A stretch of 29,192 nt of DNA, taken from the IMG/VR virus record IMGVR_UViG_2700989521_000016; one strand, given 5' to 3'. The notes below the pieces were generated by a model that was given only the letters and a program-made list of their open reading frames with translations, ran no database searches and was not told the DNA's origin. Both the position numbers and the translations under genes were made by a program. Below are positions 5,026 to 16,952 of this stretch, one piece after another. Position 1 is the stretch's first letter, and each line of letters opens with the position of its first letter. The stretch comes from a virus. Lineage: Duplodnaviria; Heunggongvirae; Uroviricota; Caudoviricetes.

Positions 5026-5102
5026 TTACCGTTGAGGTAATAATTATGCGTATTTGGTTTGATGTCAATAGATATGAGTTGAAAAAATTACCTGCAAGGT
5101 AA
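5026..5102. promoter_or_regulatory. PL-like leftward early promoter region with two perfect TTACC-N5-GGTAA operator palindromes (5026-5040, 5088-5102)
   Basis: Perfect palindromes TTACCGTTGAGGTAA and TTACCTGCAAGGTAA read directly; minus-strand TTGACA (5063-5068) and CATAAT/TAATTA-like -10 candidates lie between and adjacent to them; exact -35/-10 spacing not resolved. Confidence 0.6.
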
Positions 5103-5159: not shown

Positions 5160-5744
5160 TTATTGTTTGTTTTTTTCGTTCTGGTTGATGACAAATTCAA
5201 TGTAACTTTCGATCTTTGCTTTCTCGGTTTCAGGTAACAATGCGTAGCGCGAGCGGTCATAGTTGATAGTTGCAGGGTCGTGCGGGTGAATCAGTAGTTC
5301 ATATCCGTGACGCCCGAATGCAGATGCAACATTCTCCAGAGTGGAAATGGAAACGCTGACCTCATTGTTTAACAGGCGGCTGATTGTCACCTGGGCGACG
5401 CCGGATGCGCGGTGAAGTTTTCCCTGAGTTGAAAGGTCGCGGCTTTCACTCATCCAGCGTTCCAGGTTGTGAGCCGCCAGCTGACCAATGTCGCTTGGTC
5501 CAACAGGCTGAAAACCCTCCTGAGAAAGCGAGCGATCGATATCAAGCCAGTTACGTGGTTTATTGGCGGCAGCTTCAATTTTTCGCGCAACCTGGTCGCC
5601 GATAACCTTCTTGCCAAGAGCCCAGCGGTTTACCAGATTTGCCTGAGTTCCAAGTTTTTCTGCCATCCGCGTCTGAACACCATTGAATTCACGGTCGATC
5701 AAGTCGTTGAGATTTTGCCTGCGGACGTCCTGGATACTTTTCAT
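5160..5744 (-). CDS. Prophage repressor candidate with two tandem XRE-type helix-turn-helix domains and no recognisable S24 peptidase domain
   Basis: 194 aa; two HTH-like segments (MAEKLGTQANLVNRWALGKK...; ASGVAQVTISRLLNNEVSVSISTLENVASAFG); divergent from Cro-like gene with operator palindromes between them. Confidence 0.75.
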   Translation of the reverse strand: MKSIQDVRRQNLNDLIDREFNGVQTRMAEKLGTQANLVNRWALGKKVIGDQVARKIEAAANKPRNWLDIDRSLSQEGFQPVGPSDIGQLAAHNLERWMSESRDLSTQGKLHRASGVAQVTISRLLNNEVSVSISTLENVASAFGRHGYELLIHPHDPATINYDRSRYALLPETEKAKIESYIEFVINQNEKNKQ

Positions 5745-6495: not shown

Positions 6496-7311
6496 ATGAG
6501 CAGACATGCAACAGATTGGGCCTGGGAGACAGATCCAGGTAGCTCATCATTAAAGCTCATACTGCTCTCGATGGCTGACAGAGCCGATGAATATAACCTC
6601 TGCTACCCCAGCATAGAACGCCTCGTTAAAGACACTTGCCTGAATAAAAAAACCGTGCAGGCCGGGCTTATATCGCTCATGAAAATGGGGCTTATTTCAG
6701 ATACCGGAGAGAGAAAGGGAGCGACGAAAAGAGTGCGGGTTTTCTCTCTTAATATAACCAAAAACGGGAACATTAAAGGCAACCGGGAAGGGGGGAATGA
6801 ACCCGAAAACGGTAATGTTCCCGAAAACGGTAATATAACCAAAAACGGGATGTTGAATGATCCCAAAAACGGGATGTTGAATGATCCCAAAAACGGGATC
6901 CAGAACCAGTCATATAACCAGTCATTTAACCAAGAGAGGGAGAGCAGGACAAAAAACGGGAATTCTGTGCCTCATGACCCCGGCGCAAACAACGCCGTGA
7001 TGAATAACTTTGTTCCTCCTGGTGGGCCAGGGCAATTAGGCAAATTTGTCATGCATGAACAATGGCAGCCATCAGATGACTTTCTTCGGAAAAGCTCATT
7101 GCAGGGGATCTACCTGGACAGTCTGCCAACGGCACAGGAACTTGCAGAGTTCAGAATTTACTGGATGGCTGAGGGTAAGGCATACCATCAGGCACAGTGG
7201 GAGCAGAAGCTGGCAAGGCGGCTGCAGATTAGCAGACAGAAGCAATCAACATTACCTGATAACAACGTTCCGCACTGGAACAGCCCTGAAGCATGGGAGG
7301 ATTTCTTGTGA
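6496..7311 (+). CDS. Replication initiator protein (lambda O-like organisation: N-terminal HTH domain, iteron-encoded linker, C-terminal DnaT-like domain)
   Basis: 271 aa; sits directly upstream of and overlaps the P-like gene; internal iteron array encodes an NG-rich linker; GGAG SD upstream. Confidence 0.75.
   Translation: MSRHATDWAWETDPGSSSLKLILLSMADRADEYNLCYPSIERLVKDTCLNKKTVQAGLISLMKMGLISDTGERKGATKRVRVFSLNITKNGNIKGNREGGNEPENGNVPENGNITKNGMLNDPKNGMLNDPKNGIQNQSYNQSFNQERESRTKNGNSVPHDPGANNAVMNNFVPPGGPGQLGKFVMHEQWQPSDDFLRKSSLQGIYLDSLPTAQELAEFRIYWMAEGKAYHQAQWEQKLARRLQISRQKQSTLPDNNVPHWNSPEAWEDFL
6757..6900. repeat. Iteron array (candidate origin of replication) embedded in the replication initiator gene
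   Basis: Direct repeats read from sequence: CCCGAAAACGGTAAT at 6802-6816 and 6820-6834 (18-bp period); CCAAAAACGGGATGTTGAATGAT at 6839-6862 and 6863-6886 plus a partial third copy; related CCAAAAACGGGAA at 6757-6769. Confidence 0.7.
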
Positions 7312-8130: not shown

Positions 8131-8207
8131 TTACCTTCTGGGTAATGAGATATTCTAAAATCTATTGATTTCGTGTCTTATGTGGTTTTTAATTACCTCA
8201 GGGGTAA
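8131..8207. promoter_or_regulatory. Promoter region of the nin-like operon with two perfect TTACC-N5-GGTAA palindromes (8131-8145, 8193-8207)
   Basis: TTACCTTCTGGGTAA and TTACCTCAGGGGTAA read directly; TTGATT (8165-8170) then 17 bp then TTTAAT (8188-8193) looks like a sigma70 promoter; second palindrome overlaps the -10/RBS of the gene starting at 8211. Confidence 0.6.
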
Positions 8208-11017: not shown

Positions 11018-11385
11018 TGGACTATTCACAGTTAAGTGATTTTGAAATTAACAGAATGGTAGGAGACATAATTTTTAAAGGCCTTTGGGCATGTAAACCG
11101 GAAACATCAGGGAATAACACCAACAAATGGTATTACGGAAATGCTGATACAACTTTTGAGCCATTAAACCCTTTACCTGACTACTGCAATGATCCGAGCG
11201 CCTCATGGCCTGTAATCGCAAAACATCAGATCAGCATATGTGCATACGAAAGAAATAATCCTGGAATGAAGAATGAATATTGGTGGGAGGCGGATAGATT
11301 TTGTGAATTTATTACCATAGACAACAACCCACTCCGCGCCGCCATGATTGTATTTCTCATGATGCAGGAAAATCAGAATGGCTAA
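11017..11385 (+). CDS. Hypothetical protein (122 aa), possibly NinX/DUF2591-like
   Basis: ATG at 11017 overlaps previous stop (TAATG); GGAGG SD; N-terminus MDYSQLSDFEINRMVG; family assignment from memory only. Confidence 0.55.
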   Translation: MDYSQLSDFEINRMVGDIIFKGLWACKPETSGNNTNKWYYGNADTTFEPLNPLPDYCNDPSASWPVIAKHQISICAYERNNPGMKNEYWWEADRFCEFITIDNNPLRAAMIVFLMMQENQNG

Positions 11386-11716
11386 ATCATCAGCAGAGCG
11401 CAAAGCCGCTCAGAGAGCCAGACAAGCTGCATCTGGTGTGCGTAAGCTGGAAATTGTGCTTGATGCTCAGGAAATTGAAATGCTGGAGCGTAACTGTGCC
11501 ACGCGTCGCCCCGGGCGTGCGCCTTACGAATTTGGTGAGTATATAGCGTTACTGATCCGCCAGGATGATGCACGCGTGCGCGGGCGTATAAAATCGATCA
11601 GCAGAAAACGTTGCGGTAAGTGCGGCGAGAGAGTTCCAGTTAATTCATGCCCGTGTAATGGTGACTCGCAATGCTGGGTGACTAAAGGCTGGCATGAAAC
11701 GAAATTAATAGTGTGA
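11378..11716 (+). CDS. Hypothetical protein (112 aa) with C-terminal Cys cluster, last gene before terminator and packaging genes
   Basis: Basic N-terminus, RCGKCGERVPVNSCPCNGDSQCW zinc-binding-like cluster; could be a regulator, but no family recognised. Confidence 0.55.
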   Translation: MAKSSAERKAAQRARQAASGVRKLEIVLDAQEIEMLERNCATRRPGRAPYEFGEYIALLIRQDDARVRGRIKSISRKRCGKCGERVPVNSCPCNGDSQCWVTKGWHETKLIV

Positions 11717-12460: not shown

Positions 12461-13903
12461 TTGATCGAGGATATTGCAGGGTTCACTCACGATCCGCTTG
12501 GCTATGCCCTCTATGCGTTCCCGTGGGGGGAAGAGGGGACTGAATTAGCACATGCCACCGGTCCACGTCAGTGGCAGGCTGATGCGTTCCGAGAGATACG
12601 TGATCACCTGCAGAATCCAGAGACGCGCTATCAGCCGCTTATGCTGGCACGTGCTTCGGGTCACGGTATTGGTAAATCCGCATTCATCTCAATGCTGATC
12701 AACTGGGGCATGTCCACTTGCGAGGATTGTAAGGTCGTGGTGACCGCCAACACCGACAACCAGCTACGAACGAAGACTTGGCCGGAAATTATCAAGTGGT
12801 CGAACCTTGCTATCACGAAAGACTGGTTTACCTGTACCGCTACCGCGATGTACAGCAATGACCCTGGGCACGACAAGCGGTGGCGAGCTGACGCAATCCC
12901 CTGGTCTGAGCACAACACTGAGGCATTCGCCGGACTACACAACGAGCGCAAACGCATCATCGTGGTATTCGATGAAGCGTCGAACATTGCGGATCTGGTG
13001 TGGGAAGTTGCCGAGGGTGCGCTAACGGACGAAGACACTGAGATTATCTGGGTGGCGTTCGGAAACCCGACGCGTAACACCGGGCGTTTCCGTGAATGTT
13101 TCCGCAAGTACAAACACCGCTGGAAGTGTGCGCAGATTGACAGCCGGACGGTGGAAGGCACTAACAAACAGCAGTTGCAGAAATGGGTTGATGACTACGG
13201 GGAAGACAGCGACTTCGTTAAAATCCGTGTGCGCGGCATATTCCCGGATGCATCTGAATTGCAGTTTATCCCTACTGGCCTTACTGACGAGGCAATGAAA
13301 CGGGTGGTAACCGCTGCGCAGGTTGCACATGCTCCGGTGATAATCGGCGTTGACCCGGCATACTCCGGCGTTGATGACGCTGTGATATACCTGCGGCAGG
13401 GGCTGCACAGTAAGGTGCTGTGGACTGGCAACAAGACCACTGACGATCTGATTATGGCGAAGCGTATCGCTGACTTTGAAGACCAGTACCAGGCTGACGC
13501 AGTGTTCATCGACTTCGGTTACGGAACTGGTCTGAAGTCAATCGGTGACGGCTGGGGTCGTACATGGCAACTTGTTCCGTTCGGTGGCGCGTCTACTGAC
13601 CCGCAGATGCTCAACAAGCGTGGGGAGATGTTCATCTCATGCAAGACATGGCTGAGGCTGGGTGGCATGCTTGATGACCAGGAAACAGCGGACGACCTGT
13701 CGGCGGCTGAGTACAAAGTTCGAGTGGACGGTAAAATCGTTATCGAACCGAAGGAAGATATCAAGGAGCGGCTTGGGCGTTCGCCGGGTAAAGGCGATGC
13801 GCTACTGCTGACGTTTGCGTTCCCTGTGTCGAAGCGTCTGCGAATTCCCGGGCAGCAGAACCAGCAAGGCAAGGCCATCACAGATTACGATCCCTATGCT
13901 TAA
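12461..13903 (+). CDS. terL: Terminase large subunit (ATPase plus nuclease domains)
   Basis: 480 aa; Walker A-like ASGHGIGKS; VVFDEASN Walker B-like; TTG start at 12461 as in ORF track (in-frame stop at 12422-12424 limits upstream extension). Confidence 0.85.
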   Translation: MIEDIAGFTHDPLGYALYAFPWGEEGTELAHATGPRQWQADAFREIRDHLQNPETRYQPLMLARASGHGIGKSAFISMLINWGMSTCEDCKVVVTANTDNQLRTKTWPEIIKWSNLAITKDWFTCTATAMYSNDPGHDKRWRADAIPWSEHNTEAFAGLHNERKRIIVVFDEASNIADLVWEVAEGALTDEDTEIIWVAFGNPTRNTGRFRECFRKYKHRWKCAQIDSRTVEGTNKQQLQKWVDDYGEDSDFVKIRVRGIFPDASELQFIPTGLTDEAMKRVVTAAQVAHAPVIIGVDPAYSGVDDAVIYLRQGLHSKVLWTGNKTTDDLIMAKRIADFEDQYQADAVFIDFGYGTGLKSIGDGWGRTWQLVPFGGASTDPQMLNKRGEMFISCKTWLRLGGMLDDQETADDLSAAEYKVRVDGKIVIEPKEDIKERLGRSPGKGDALLLTFAFPVSKRLRIPGQQNQQGKAITDYDPYA

Positions 13904-13953
13904 TCCGTTGGAGGGGATAATGCTGCTGATATCCTCTGGCGAGGATAAAACAA

Positions 13954-13973
13954 AGCCAGCTCATCGGCTGGCT
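13954..13973. terminator. Bidirectional terminator-like hairpin between terL and the convergent moron gene
   Basis: Stem AGCCAGC/GCTGGCT with loop TCATCG; A-rich upstream (U tract on minus strand) and GTTTGTG downstream on plus strand. Confidence 0.55.
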
Positions 13974-13977
13974 GTTT

Positions 13978-13989
13978 GTGACATGTCAC
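13978..13989. repeat. Perfect 12-bp palindrome GTGACATGTCAC, copy 2
   Basis: Read directly; identical to 11713-11724, shared flanks extend the match to tGTGACATGTCACg. Confidence 0.8.
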
Positions 13990-13993
13990 GGTG

Positions 13994-14350
13994 TTATTGC
14001 TCGCTTAGCTTCTGCTTCAGCAAGTAACCTTCGAGCATCCAGATTTTGTTTACAGCATTCTGCCGGGCAATCTTCCGACCAATTTCTGCATCAAAGTTTT
14101 CCTGGCTTGCACAGGCACTCTCTCCGGTGACGGTGAAGCCATTCTTCAGCACCAGTACGCAGAAAGTCAGGAGGTCTGTAGAGTTATGCGCTGTCCATGA
14201 ATCGCCAACGCCCATATTGGCGGCACGAATGCCGTCATAAGCAGTAAAGAAATGCTCTTCAAGAATGATGCTTTCGATATATTGAGGCGTAACTCGCGGT
14301 GCCGTTTTGCCTTTCTCAACGATTTCTTTTTCGATTTGCTGGTCGTTCAT
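13994..14350 (-). CDS. Moron-like hypothetical protein (118 aa) on the opposite strand to the late genes; possibly Gp49/Sf6 gp66-like family (tentative)
   Basis: ATG at 14348-14350 with AAGGTGAG SD; flanked by terminator hairpins on both sides; motif NGFTVTGESACASQENFDAEIGRKIA recalls a conserved phage family from memory. Confidence 0.7.
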   Translation of the reverse strand: MNDQQIEKEIVEKGKTAPRVTPQYIESIILEEHFFTAYDGIRAANMGVGDSWTAHNSTDLLTFCVLVLKNGFTVTGESACASQENFDAEIGRKIARQNAVNKIWMLEGYLLKQKLSEQ

Positions 14351-14361
14351 AATCTCACCTT

Positions 14362-14385
14362 AAAAAAATGCCCGGCGAACCGGGC
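14362..14385 (-). terminator. Strong rho-independent terminator between the tRNA and the moron gene
   Basis: Minus strand reads GCCCGG-UUCG-CCGGGC followed by A + UUUUUUU; U tract ends 12 nt before the moron start codon. Confidence 0.75.
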
Positions 14386-14547
14386 GAACTGGAAGCAATG
14401 AGTTCTTCCTTCCGTGGATGTACGGGTTTACAGCATGAAGTCATCGCAATGGCGTCCTGCTGTAAAAAGTGCGGTGATAGTCCTTCAAGGGAAACCATCA
14501 CCGCCAAGCACTGGAACTTCTGGCATCACGGTCCTTAGGCGTGATTC

Positions 14548-14624
14548 TGGCGTGGCATGCAGGATTCGAACCTGCGACCAACCGCTTAGAAGGCGGTTGC
14601 TCTGTCCGACTGAGCTAATGCCAC
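14548..14624 (-). tRNA. tRNA-Arg (anticodon UCU), phage-borne
   Basis: Manually folded 77-nt cloverleaf on minus strand: acceptor GTGGCAT/ATGCCAC, D-arm GCTC/GAGC, anticodon stem ACCGC/GCGGT with loop CTTCTAA (anticodon TCT), T-arm GCAGG-TTCGAAT-CCTGC identical to E. coli argU as recalled, discriminator G and encoded CCA. Confidence 0.8.
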
Positions 14625-14946
14625 AACGCTGAGAGCACTTAGCCTGTTAAGGCACCACACTTTGTCGCGGCTCCATAAATGCTCTCATCGTTGTACCCTC
14701 GTCTCTTCCGAGGCGTCACACCGAATCGCCGGGATGGTGAATCCCCGTGCGCGGAATAAAACCGCTCGACTTGCACATTCCGGCTACCTGGTTCGTTTGC
14801 CCGAGCAAGGGAGGGTGCCCCTTAAACGTATCCAGGCCGCTATCGGCGCATGTGCCATACGCCGTACTGCTCAAAATAAAAGCTCACTCCACCTGTTCAA
14901 TTTAACGACAAGCCAGTCAGGTTAGTAACCGGAATGAACTTTTTGG

Positions 14947-14961
14947 TTACCTGAAAGGTAA
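14947..14961. promoter_or_regulatory. Perfect TTACC-N5-GGTAA palindrome at the head of the virion-gene operon
   Basis: TTACCTGAAAGGTAA read directly, right half-site runs into GGTAATAAT (possible -10); a second GGTAATAAT at 15017-15025. Confidence 0.6.
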
Positions 14962-15051
14962 TAATTCGTGCGTTAAATGTCAACCGACTACGATAAATAA
15001 ATCATATGTGGTTAAATTGGTAATAATTTAATTGCGTACGGAGTCATTGAT

Positions 15052-15258
15052 ATGTGCATGGGTAGCTCACCATCAGTGCCTGCAACACCAGAAGTTCAGG
15101 CAGCACCACAGGAGCAGGATGCCGCCGTTGTTGATGCCCGCGACGAAGAAACTCGTCGCCGTCGCGCTGCTGCTGGTCGTAGTTCTACGCTGCTTACCGG
15201 TTCTCAGGGCGACACATCAACCGCTAATACCAGCGGTAAAACGCTACTTGGTCAGTAA
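15052..15258 (+). CDS. Small hypothetical protein (68 aa) preceding the portal gene
   Basis: ATG at 15052 with CGGAG SD; Ala/Pro/Arg-rich; no family recognised. Confidence 0.5.
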   Translation: MCMGSSPSVPATPEVQAAPQEQDAAVVDARDEETRRRRAAAGRSSTLLTGSQGDTSTANTSGKTLLGQ

Positions 15259-15272
15259 CCGGAGTCATTGAA

Positions 15273-16952
15273 ATGGCGGAAACAACTAAAGAGCGATTGA
15301 ACAAACAGTTCGCACAACTTGAAAGCGAGCGTCAGTCGTTCGAGCCGCACTGGCGCGAGTTGAGTGATTACATCAACCCGCGTGGTTCCCGCTTTCTGAC
15401 TTCTGAGGTCAACCGTAACGATCGACGCAATACACGCATTATTGATTCGACCGGGACTATGGCGGCGCGCACTCTCGCCAGCGGCATGATGTCAGGCATC
15501 ACAAGCCCCGCGCGTCCGTGGTTTCGCCTGGCTACGCCAGATCCTGAAATGATGGATTATGGCCCTGTTAAGTTGTGGCTTGAGGCGGTGCAGAACCGCA
15601 TGAACGATATGTTTAATGAGTCGAATCTCTATCAGTCTCTGCCGCAGTTATACGGAAGCCTCGGCACATACAGCACTGGTGCAATGGCAGTGCTGGAGGA
15701 TGACGAGGACATCATTCGCACAATGCCATTCCCGATAGGCAGTTACTACCTGGCTAACTCACCTCGTGGCAGTGTGGACACCTGTTTTCGCAAGTTCTCT
15801 ATGACTGTTCGTCAGCTTGTTCAGGAGTTCGGGCTAAATAACGTCAGCGAATCCGTAAAAAGCATGTGGGAAAGCGGCACCTACGAGAAGTGGATTGAAG
15901 TGATGCATTCGGTTTACCCGAACATTGACCGCGATACATCGAAGCTGGATAGCAAGAACAAGCCATTCAAATCGGTTTATTACGAGGTTGGTGGCGATAA
16001 CGACAAGTTGTTGCGTGAGTCCGGATTCGATGAGTTTCCAATTATGGCTCCGCGCTGGGAAGTTAACGGCGAAGATGTTTATGGATCATCATGCCCGGGT
16101 ATGCTGGCGCTTGGACCTGTTAAGGCATTGCAGCTTCTCCAGAAGCGCAAGTCGCAGTTGATTGATAAAGCCACCAATCCGCCGATGGTTGCTCCGACTT
16201 CCCTCAAGAATCAGCGCGCCTCCCTTCTTCCTGGCGACATCACGTATATCGATCAGATTACTGGTCAGGATGGTTTCAGGCCTGCTTATCTGGTTAACCC
16301 CAGTACAGCAGATCTGGTAGCAGACATTCAGGACACTCGCCAAATCATTAACAGCGCCTACTTTGTCGATCTGTTCATGATGTTGCAGAACATCAATACC
16401 CGCTCGATGCCTGTTGAAGCGGTGATCGAAATGAAAGAAGAAAAACTTCTGATGTTGGGGCCGGTTCTGGAGCGTCTGAACGACGAATGTCTTAATCCTC
16501 TCATTGACCGCGCTTTCTCGATGATGGTGCGTAAAAACATGCTGCCGCCACCGCCTGACGCGATGGAAGGTATGCCCCTGAAGGTCGAATACATTTCCGT
16601 CATGGCTCAGGCGCAGAAGTCTATCGGCCTGTCCAGTCTGGCGTCTACGGTCAACTTCATTGGTCAACTTGCGCAAGCGAAACCAGAAGCTCTCGACAAA
16701 CTCAACGTTGATCAGGCGATCGATGCATTCGCTGATATGTCCGGAGTGTCTCCAACCGTCATTGTTCCGCAGGAACAGGTTGAGCAGGCTCGCCAGCAAC
16801 GGGCACAGCAACAACAGCAGCAACAAATGATGGCGATGGGGATGGCGGCGGCACAGGGTGCCAAGACGCTAAGCGAAGCTAAAACTTCGGATCCGAGTGT
16901 TTTGTCAGCTATGGCGAATGCAGTTAGTGGTCAGGGTGGGCAATCACAATGA
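15273..16952 (+). CDS. Portal (head-to-tail connector) protein, podovirus type
   Basis: 559 aa; position after terminase; size and C-terminal Gln/Ala/Met-rich tail (QQRAQQQQQQQMMAMGMAAAQG) recall podovirus connector proteins; family assignment from memory. Confidence 0.8.
   Translation: MAETTKERLNKQFAQLESERQSFEPHWRELSDYINPRGSRFLTSEVNRNDRRNTRIIDSTGTMAARTLASGMMSGITSPARPWFRLATPDPEMMDYGPVKLWLEAVQNRMNDMFNESNLYQSLPQLYGSLGTYSTGAMAVLEDDEDIIRTMPFPIGSYYLANSPRGSVDTCFRKFSMTVRQLVQEFGLNNVSESVKSMWESGTYEKWIEVMHSVYPNIDRDTSKLDSKNKPFKSVYYEVGGDNDKLLRESGFDEFPIMAPRWEVNGEDVYGSSCPGMLALGPVKALQLLQKRKSQLIDKATNPPMVAPTSLKNQRASLLPGDITYIDQITGQDGFRPAYLVNPSTADLVADIQDTRQIINSAYFVDLFMMLQNINTRSMPVEAVIEMKEEKLLMLGPVLERLNDECLNPLIDRAFSMMVRKNMLPPPPDAMEGMPLKVEYISVMAQAQKSIGLSSLASTVNFIGQLAQAKPEALDKLNVDQAIDAFADMSGVSPTVIVPQEQVEQARQQRAQQQQQQQMMAMGMAAAQGAKTLSEAKTSDPSVLSAMANAVSGQGGQSQ

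Follow-up and report, generated by a model that had tools for sequence, protein, structure and literature searches.

What does a leftward unit consisting of a tRNA gene and a protein gene do between the terminase and portal genes of a temperate phage, and when would it be expressed? The question is raised by IMG/VR record IMGVR_UViG_2700989521_000016, a 29 192-nucleotide (nt) stretch of DNA, referred to here as the window, that represents the left two-thirds of an epsilon15/phiV10-like prophage of Escherichia coli (genus Uetakevirus). The window opens with the integrase gene, and near-identical prophage copies adjoin guaA. The unit contains a tRNA-Arg(UCU) gene and an open reading frame (ORF) of 118 amino acids (aa). 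From comparative sequence analysis, we consider it reasonably likely that the unit is a conserved, repressor-gated leftward accessory operon of the epsilon15/phiV10-like phages with two exchangeable positions, here filled by the tRNA and by an Acb4-family sponge against CBASS (cyclic oligonucleotide-based antiphage signalling), and that it is used lytically. The features that matter most for this reading are the following.

12461–13903, plus strand, large terminase (terL)
13994–14350, minus strand, 118 aa Acb4-family protein (PF13876), predicted tetrameric cyclic-dinucleotide sponge (anti-CBASS), from Pfam, PDB phmmer and AlphaFold2 (AF2)/Foldseek
14548–14624, minus strand, tRNA-Arg(UCU), 77 nt with encoded CCA, occupying the 'RNA slot', from ARAGORN, Rfam and comparison with argU
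14947–14961, no strand, prophage repressor operator TTACCTGAAAGGTAA (TTACC-N5-GGTAA), from motif statistics and the epsilon15 annotation
14955–14983, minus strand, putative sigma-70-type promoter into the unit, with −35 TTGACA (14983–14978), a 17 nt spacer and −10 TACCTT (14960–14955), from conservation
15052–15258, plus strand, gp3
15273–16952, plus strand, portal

The coordinates and strands of terL, gp3 and portal confirm that the cassette lies between terminase and portal on the opposite strand, as the original prediction from the bare sequence had it, and the minus-strand 118 aa ORF that was part of that prediction exists and has an ATG start. The unit is placed in the same way between terL and gp3/portal in phiV10 and in E. 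coli prophages annotated with the Prokaryotic Genome Annotation Pipeline (PGAP), where the labels read 'Gp49 family protein', 'tRNA-Arg' and 'portal protein'. The 1.4 kb region is found in 222 of 5426 complete E. coli genomes (∼4%; coverage of at least 80%). Neither the tRNA nor the ORF is new as an annotation, both being already annotated in hundreds of genomes; the paper on phage ZX5 (97% identical) names 'one tRNA' without comment.

The 118 aa protein belongs to the Acb4 family

Sequence criteria place the ORF in the Acb4 sponge family PF13876 (Gp49/Sf6 gene 66), the Pfam profile of which is matched over positions 1–82 of 82 with 118 bits (E = 2.7e-34, cut-off 27). The sole sequence match in the PDB (phmmer) is entry 9e4w, anti-CBASS 4 of phage SPO1. 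In the AF2 monomer model, which has a predicted local distance difference test score (pLDDT) of 81, helices (H) and strands (E) follow each other as H-H-E-H-H-E-E-H, as expected for the Acb4 fold, in which N-terminal helices and a long C-terminal helix enclose a sheet of three strands. The top 13 Foldseek matches of this model in the PDB are all chains of 9e4w (probability 0.99–1.00), and the next match has an E-value of 0.26; the target-normalised template-modelling (TM) score to 9e4w is moderate (0.46–0.55). Over 100 residues the protein is 42% identical to N4 gp49, the experimentally validated Acb4 of phage N4. Among the residues that contact the ligand in SPO1 Acb4, only F48, F62 and I66 are conserved in the window protein.

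Acb4 was assigned to PF13876 by Chang et al. (PMC11722364), who listed 1,331 homologs. All eight of the diverse homologs that were purified (8/8) bound 3'3'-cyclic GMP–AMP (cGAMP), those of Gram-negative phages also bound 3'3'-cyclic di-AMP (c-di-AMP), and a different specificity was reported for the Gram-negative homologs (PMC11722364). Table S3 of that paper includes an E. coli protein that is two residues off the window protein, together with the proteins of phiV10, epsilon15, Sf6 and N4. A later preprint shows binding of c-di-AMP to N4 gp49 at 111 nM and triggering of the PanDA guard system by the same protein. A PADLOC search returned no match for the 118 aa ORF. By analogy with these relatives, the ORF is probably an anti-CBASS sponge. 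What had been described as a moron is a member of the Acb4 family of immune-signal sponges, with a predicted counter-defence function in the lytic cycle.

Acb4 alleles of 112, 118, 123 and 124 aa (L016–L095; L numbers denote the related loci that were compared) are nearly identical in their N-terminal ∼25 and C-terminal ∼60 residues and have unrelated middles. The pattern of the sequences looks like mosaic recombination inside the gene.

Promoter and operator

The unit runs past the limits first given for it, up to a promoter ∼325–360 nt upstream of the tRNA. This promoter was detected by comparative footprinting only: the perfect −35 element TTGACA, the spacing and the operator are kept in 10/10 reference phages, the spacer sequence drifts, and the promoter/operator pattern recurs in 179 of the 181 unique related loci. 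The −10 element TACCTT sits within the operator palindrome TTACCTGAAAGGTAA.

The operator was assigned from GenBank annotation, motif statistics and geometry. TTACC-N5-GGTAA occurs seven times in the window (0.00 copies expected), at positions 5026, 5088, 5800, 8131, 8193, 11803 and 14947. Three copies flank the repressor gene (5160–5744). Outside the immunity region, copies follow the replication genes, coincide with the start of terS and lie upstream of gp3; the epsilon15 record annotates the same motif as 'repressor' sites. An operator is also superimposed on a promoter at 5026 on the minus strand (TTGACA-17-AATTAT) and at 8193 on the plus strand (TTGATT-17-TTTAAT). The copies beyond the immunity region suggest that the repressor directly controls several separate lytic units. 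Since the operator overlaps the −10 element, the unit is predicted to be repressed in the lysogen, and from these sequence features we infer repressor control, with no expression in the lysogen and expression following infection or induction. Expression in the lysogen, which had been considered possible, is not supported by this arrangement, the only good promoter having its −10 element inside the repressor operator.

Terminators, leader and spacer

Between the promoter and terL, the backbone of the unit contains the following elements.

13947–13973 (stem 13954–13973), no strand, hairpin A, with T-runs on both strands, bidirectional terminator for terL (plus) and the cargo ORF (minus), left boundary of the protein slot
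14348–14361, minus strand, Shine–Dalgarno (SD) sequence AAGGTGA and ATG of the cargo ORF, the SD being conserved backbone in a nine-relative alignment
14362–14385, minus strand, terminator B, GCCCGG-TTCG-CCGGGC then T7, directly upstream of the SD, right boundary of the protein slot
14391–14466, minus strand, conserved spacer with the stem GGAAG..CTTCC (14391–14413) and the nearly invariant block TTTACAGCAGGACGCCATTGCGATGACTTCATGCTGTAAA (14427–14466)
14464–14504, minus strand, terminator C, a 13 bp hairpin (14471–14504) then T5, downstream of the tRNA, its stem kept by compensatory changes
14525–14546, minus strand, 3' trailer hairpin AATCACG-CCTAAGGAC-CGTGAT directly after the tRNA, conserved with or without the tRNA
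14625–14693, minus strand, 16–17 bp stem against the 5' end of the tRNA, with arms 14676–14693 and 14624–14641, the latter sharing one base with the tRNA
14694–14946, minus strand, structured, conserved and apparently noncoding leader with hairpins 14844–14864 and 14697–14713 and a block at 14770–14788

The phiV10 record annotates a terminator homologous to hairpin A, and segment 13952–13996 is 82–87% conserved in distant relatives, whereas the neighbouring cargo is not conserved. Terminator B shows two compensatory pairs (GCCCGG/CCGGGC versus GCCCAC/GTGGGC) and is present in 174 of 181 relatives; both B and C keep their T-runs in relatives. Because terminator B directly precedes the SD and ATG, there is no room for a promoter belonging to the ORF alone, and its expression needs read-through of two terminators. 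The cassette had been proposed to be bounded by hairpin terminators. This holds for the one after the ORF, but two others stand between the ORF and the tRNA, whose outer side has none.

The spacer has columns that are invariant across phages of E. coli, Salmonella, Klebsiella and Enterobacter. The 40 nt block TTTACAGCAGGACGCCATTGCGATGACTTCATGCTGTAAA stands almost unchanged between terminators C and B in every relative examined; its core motif has one exact copy in the window and one further match with three mismatches, which is at chance level; the block could be involved in read-through of terminator B. The arms of the stem at the 5' end of the tRNA are nearly invariant and its loop is lineage-specific, with 34 nt in the window, ∼47 nt in Klebsiella phages and ∼100 nt in SPN1S. 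The SPN1S loop contains the T-arm-like sequence CTGGTTCAATTCCAG. In the leader, blocks that are near-invariant in E. coli, Salmonella and Klebsiella phages alternate with variable stretches in which the indels are not multiples of three. Rfam at permissive E-values gave no match for either the leader or the spacer.

The protein slot is freely exchanged

A BLAST comparison of the gap with nine reference phages resolves it into a constant backbone and two variable positions. A survey of IMG/VR with three TerL seeds then supplied 236 loci with 181 unique gaps, and the cargo was clustered in 179 loci, terminator B being taken as the limit of the slot. From terminator A to terminator B, these 179 loci hold more than 20 cargo families on near-identical backbones, distributed as follows.

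Acb4 (PF13876), 64/179 loci
phrog_4780 (262 aa, transmembrane segment and coiled coil), 29/179
phrog_4846 (140 aa), 22/179
Tad2-like (PF11195; three clusters with 85.7, 78.9 and 57.5 bits), 10/179
146 aa protein (65FD type), 10/179
phrog_27507 (113 aa), 5/179
Acb2/Tad1 hairpin domain (PF24729; 59.8 bits), 2/179
Empty slot, 6/179
Other uncharacterised cargo families, the remainder of the 179

What fills one slot is independent of what fills the other: of the 64 Acb4 loci, for instance, 45 carry the tRNA. The presence of three unrelated sponge families in one position identifies the slot as a counter-defence hotspot, in keeping with the fusions of Tad2, Acb4 and Sequestin that have been reported (PMC12265669). 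PADLOC found no match for most cargo proteins, and its matches in BUCT711 were dismissed as coiled-coil noise.

That the cassette is an accessory element on the opposite strand, as first proposed, is upheld by the free exchange of the ORF slot among near-identical backbones and by the presence of the tRNA in 103 of the 181 unique gaps. As to universal presence in the lineage, which together with silence in the lysogen had been held against the proposal, the tRNA is found almost throughout the E. coli sub-lineage but not throughout the genus, and no group carries the ORF universally.

Two further observations concern the slot. A C-terminal domain of ∼60 aa (...WLNENANPHA...GEI...FLKD), noticed in cargo proteins of L007 (2468–2989, minus strand), L191, L217 and L113, is fused to the Tad2-like domain in cargo of the Klebsiella type; elsewhere it stands by itself or follows a different N-terminus, and it has no Pfam match. 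By the argument from fusions made in PMC12265669, this domain may be another sponge domain. In Tyrion, a segment between two cargo ORFs of the protein slot (L006:1637–1701, minus strand) matches the Rfam int-alpA RNA with 44 bits against a threshold of 35.8.

tRNA-Arg(UCU)

ARAGORN finds one tRNA in the window, a tRNA-Arg with anticodon tct, and the Rfam tRNA model (RF00005) scores it at 73.3 bits versus a gathering score of 29, so that the tRNA-Arg(UCU) of the original prediction stands. Compared position by position with argU of strain K-12, it differs at 14 of 77 positions, and all changes in the stems are compensatory (acceptor positions 2/4/6 with 67/69/71 and anticodon-stem positions 30–31 with 41–42). 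The anticodon loop CUUCUAA, the entire T-arm, A20, C35 and the encoded CCA are the same as in argU. This bears out the divergent stems and identical T-arm that had been noticed at the outset. A20, C35 and U36 are the identity elements by which arginyl-tRNA synthetase (ArgRS) recognises E. coli tRNA-Arg; all three are present in the window tRNA and its stems are intact.

The identity to argU is 82% over the full length, and the identity to argO of Shiga-toxin (Stx) phages is 84–86% over 57 nt. Closer than either are tRNA-Arg genes of Synechococcus myophages (cyanophages) such as S-RIM2, to which the core is 92% identical over 65 nt. Judged by these identities, the tRNA is no recent copy of the host gene. 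It is carried by 76 of 77 E. coli-lineage loci, among which 12 sequence variants occur; as the recurrent ones have changes in the D-loop only or keep a wobble pair, the tRNA appears to be under purifying selection. An origin as an attachment-site remnant was rejected: integration takes place at guaA beside the integrase gene, and the tRNA gene is intact and lies a long way from int.

Codon use

Codons were counted in annotated sets of coding sequences. Among tRNA carriers, AGA makes up 6.2 per 1000 codons in the WP3 prophage (near-identical to the window), 7.1 in phiV10 and 5.05 in SPN1S; among phages without the tRNA, it makes up 4.4 in epsilon15 and 6.45 in 65FD. AGA is absent from the 1540 codons of four flanking host genes. 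The WP3 prophage has 3.8 AGG per 1000 codons, and the prophage contains ∼68 AGA and 42 AGG codons in total. AGA is nearly missing from the portal, protease, capsid and terminase genes and is concentrated in the DnaT-like (replication; 6496–7311), small late-regulator and tail/injection genes.

The late 'transcriptional regulator' gene upstream of terS (11378–11716, plus strand) has four AGA among 112 codons (codons 13, 15, 76 and 85) in the E. coli lineage, and its orthologs in Salmonella phages have none. A Pfam search found no family for this regulator, which is a possible point at which the tRNA could influence timing.

For the suggestion that an AGA decoder tunes translation, the counts point both ways: the prophage has ∼6 AGA per 1000 codons versus none in the host genes, but relatives without the tRNA are equally rich in AGA. 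A demand for the tRNA exists, yet carriage does not follow demand. Codon supply is a plausible role.

A tRNA-like scaffold alternates with the tRNA

By seed set, the tRNA is present in 55/56 gaps for E. coli, 23/50 for epsilon15 and 20/67 for Klebsiella, and it is absent from epsilon15, Tyrion, 65FD and many other relatives. At the tRNA position, 57 of the 78 loci without the tRNA have a tRNA-like scaffold; of the 103 that bear the tRNA, none does. On its 5' side GUGGUG is followed by the 6 bp hairpin UGCGCA-GGCUGA-UGCGCA, and on its 3' side the 5 bp T-arm-like hairpin GCCGG-AGAUCAGCA-CCGGC is followed by CACCAC, so that GUGGUG...CACCAC forms a closing stem. The scaffold surrounds a hypervariable insert of ∼30–150 nt. 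Carriers, all on the minus strand, include the following.

L055, in an E. coli-lineage gap
L006 (Tyrion), ∼2290–2430
L010 (KpST11)
L195, L204, L132/L133 and others

Covariation is seen in both scaffold hairpins in L132 and L133, and the T-loops of L204 and L139 are canonical. The insert of L195 (7056–7102, minus strand) resembles 16S rRNA around positions ∼254–282, with 25 of 29 nt matching E. coli rrsH and an Rfam score of 38.3 bits (E = 3.4e-7) for the small-subunit (SSU) rRNA clan; such similarity is limited to three related variants of 26 (L195, L245 and L248), and the other inserts have no similarity to rRNA. One scaffold element weakly resembles transfer-messenger RNA (tmRNA) end to end, with 15.7 bits, far under the threshold. 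The scaffold was assigned to no family by ARAGORN or Rfam. A small ORF across the element that replaces the tRNA was rejected as the frames and start codons are not conserved.

A wider interpretation, which we consider less likely than not, would make the Uetakevirus terL–portal gap an operon dedicated to counter-defence, gated by the repressor and offering two positions for cargo. Its uncharacterised cargos (phrog_4780, phrog_4846, phrog_27507, the 146 aa 65FD type and others) would be new immunity inhibitors, and the RNA slot, holding either tRNA-Arg(UCU) or, in a mutually exclusive way, the undescribed scaffold, would also serve counter-defence. The scaffold RNAs could then be decoys for RNA-targeting defences.

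Proposed mechanism and alternatives

In the repressor-gated accessory operon that we favour, the constant backbone would consist of the promoter with its overlapping operator, the structured leader, the two intrinsic terminators, the SD sequence and the shared bidirectional terminator. In the lysogen, repressor bound to the operator would block the −10 element, and the promoter would fire upon infection or induction. RNase P and 3' processing would then free tRNA-Arg(UCU), which may supplement the scarce host argU tRNA for AGA and some AGG codons. Polymerases that pass terminators C and B would transcribe the sponge gene. From the activities of the SPO1, N4 and eight other tested homologs, the Acb4-like oligomer would be expected to sequester the cyclic-dinucleotide signals of the host CBASS, leaving the abortive-infection effector untriggered.

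Several points weigh against this. The −10 element agrees with the consensus at only three of six positions, a strict sigma-70 consensus scan of 13600–15400 yields no promoter, and the operator might mainly serve a divergent gp3–portal promoter. A Pfam scan of the regulators in the window recognised no N- or Q-type antiterminator, and the two real terminators between the tRNA and the ORF make co-transcription uncertain. Epsilon15 is viable without the tRNA and most of the leader. In the protein, the SPO1 contacts E49, V56, Y57, N63 and T70 are replaced by T, C, A, D and I, respectively, and K36 and K81 lie beyond the alignment. Finally, AGA load and tRNA carriage are uncorrelated, both genome-wide and per ortholog (5.1–7.1 per 1000 codons with the tRNA and 4.4–6.5 without).

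The last point is among those that can be turned in favour of a different role for the tRNA, in which it is counter-defence cargo replacing host tRNA-Arg(UCU) that has been cut by a tRNA-cleaving defence. The tRNA and a sponge would be part of one repressor-gated operon at a locus where counter-defence genes accumulate, and the acceptor and anticodon stems of the tRNA differ from those of argU with all identity elements kept. Cases are documented in which phage tRNAs rescue infection in the face of tRNA nucleases (PMC11464382, PMC11555353, PMC10264068), and retron Eco2 cleaves tRNA-Arg among other tRNAs. However, the anticodon loop is the same as in argU, whereas the proposed route of evasion is mutation of that loop (PMC10264068); the literature searched contained no defence directed specifically at tRNA-Arg(UCU), and the argument proceeds from guilt by association alone. 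Drawn by analogy, this role seems rather unlikely to us. Still less likely is a classical moron cassette with a constitutive promoter of its own, expressed from the prophage and altering the phenotype or translation of the lysogen. The opposite strand, the terminators and the variable content would suit it, as would reports that some Uetakevirus prophages change host phenotypes (PMC9782041). Against it stand the −10 element inside the repressor operator, an arrangement kept in 179/181 loci, the lack of any other consensus promoter in the scanned region and the two terminators ahead of the ORF; a constitutive sponge would moreover disable the CBASS of the lysogen itself and trigger guard systems such as PanDA.

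We give very little credence to the notion that the tRNA is a neutral passenger or decaying relic kept by linkage and that the ORF is a protein of Gp49 fold with a function other than signal sequestration. The absence of the tRNA from epsilon15, Tyrion, 65FD and many relatives would allow this, as would the loss of most SPO1 contact residues, but a relic is hard to reconcile with retention in 76/77 E. coli-lineage loci, where the common variants touch the D-loop only or keep the wobble pair. Against a different function of the protein stand the binding of cGAMP by 8/8 diverse PF13876 members, the validation of N4 gp49 as a sponge and the use of the same position by other sponge families in relatives.

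Annotation of related loci

Plus-strand 'hypothetical proteins' of phiV10 (PhiV10p04, L001 2672–2923) and TL-2011b (F365_gp24, L002 3007–3258) overlap an unannotated tRNA, and the corresponding plus-strand frame in the window is 14414–14632. SPN1S_0004 (L005 2436–2606) spans the conserved spacer just downstream of the tRNA position. All three are probably mis-annotations. One Klebsiella-lineage contig has, upstream of its terminase region, a domain of a group II intron (RF02005, 186.6 bits; L195:1691–1916, plus strand). The large terminase of 65FD (L015 16741–19191) is annotated with 816 aa versus ∼490 aa in all other relatives, which may be due to an insertion, an intein or a mis-called start.

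Significance and comparison with known systems

With this analysis, a 'hypothetical moron' of ∼4% of complete E. coli genomes becomes a probable anti-CBASS sponge and is joined in one regulated unit by a phage tRNA. As its flanks, terminators A and B, are fixed, cargo genes can readily be collected from thousands of prophages, and since three unrelated sponge families are already found at the locus, new inhibitors of immunity may well be present among the uncharacterised cargo families. The unit also raises a regulatory question, namely how a gene behind two terminators is expressed, and the presence or absence of the tRNA on near-identical backbones offers a natural system in which codon supply and defence evasion by a single phage tRNA can be set against each other. 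The tRNA, the Acb4 homolog and the anti-signalling hotspot are of known kinds; interest comes from the uncharacterised cargos of the hotspot, the two-terminator puzzle and an undescribed RNA that is seen only in relatives.

Like other members of the Acb4 family (founder Bacillus phage SPO1, 9e4w; members N4 gp49 and Sf6 gene 66), the window protein is a small phage protein that scores far above the Pfam threshold of PF13876, is predicted to fold as alpha-beta-beta-beta-alpha with a long C-terminal helix and keeps the motif ...NGF.V.G.S.....NFD.EIG... It is, however, only ∼25% identical to SPO1 Acb4, from which it differs in most nucleobase-contact residues, and it belongs to a temperate podophage and is apparently under repressor control. 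The locus resembles the anti-signalling hotspot of N4-like phages (bioRxiv 10.64898/2026.06.04.730250) in its fixed position among conserved genes, in the Acb4, Tad2 and other sponge genes found there in relatives and in its use for finding inhibitors. Here, the phages are temperate Uetakevirus members in which usually one gene is swapped as alleles between two terminators, whereas the N4-like hotspot has several adjacent genes, and the Uetakevirus locus is further set apart by its apparently operator-controlled promoter and by the neighbouring RNA slot.

With the 933W-type Stx phages, which carry ileZ-argN-argO upstream of stx, the prophage shares a temperate enterobacterial lifestyle, a tRNA-Arg reading AGA/AGG and phage genes richer in these codons than the host. 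Its tRNA differs in being single, in lying in the structural-gene region on the opposite strand beside a counter-defence gene and in being only 84–86% similar to argO over 57 nt. The tRNA-Lys of T5 that counters PARIS and the T5 tRNA-Tyr that counters a retron effector are likewise phage copies of a host isoacceptor with altered stems and lytic expression (predicted here), but the anticodon loop of the window tRNA is unchanged from the host and no cognate defence cleaving tRNA-Arg(UCU) was found in the literature searched. A moron in the definition of Hendrix is an extra gene with its own promoter and terminator that is expressed from the prophage. As in a lambdoid moron, the gene in the window is extra, exchangeable, flanked by terminators and missing from some relatives; unlike in a lambdoid moron, its promoter is conserved backbone outside the exchanged segment and overlapped by an operator, and its predicted function serves the phage rather than the lysogen.

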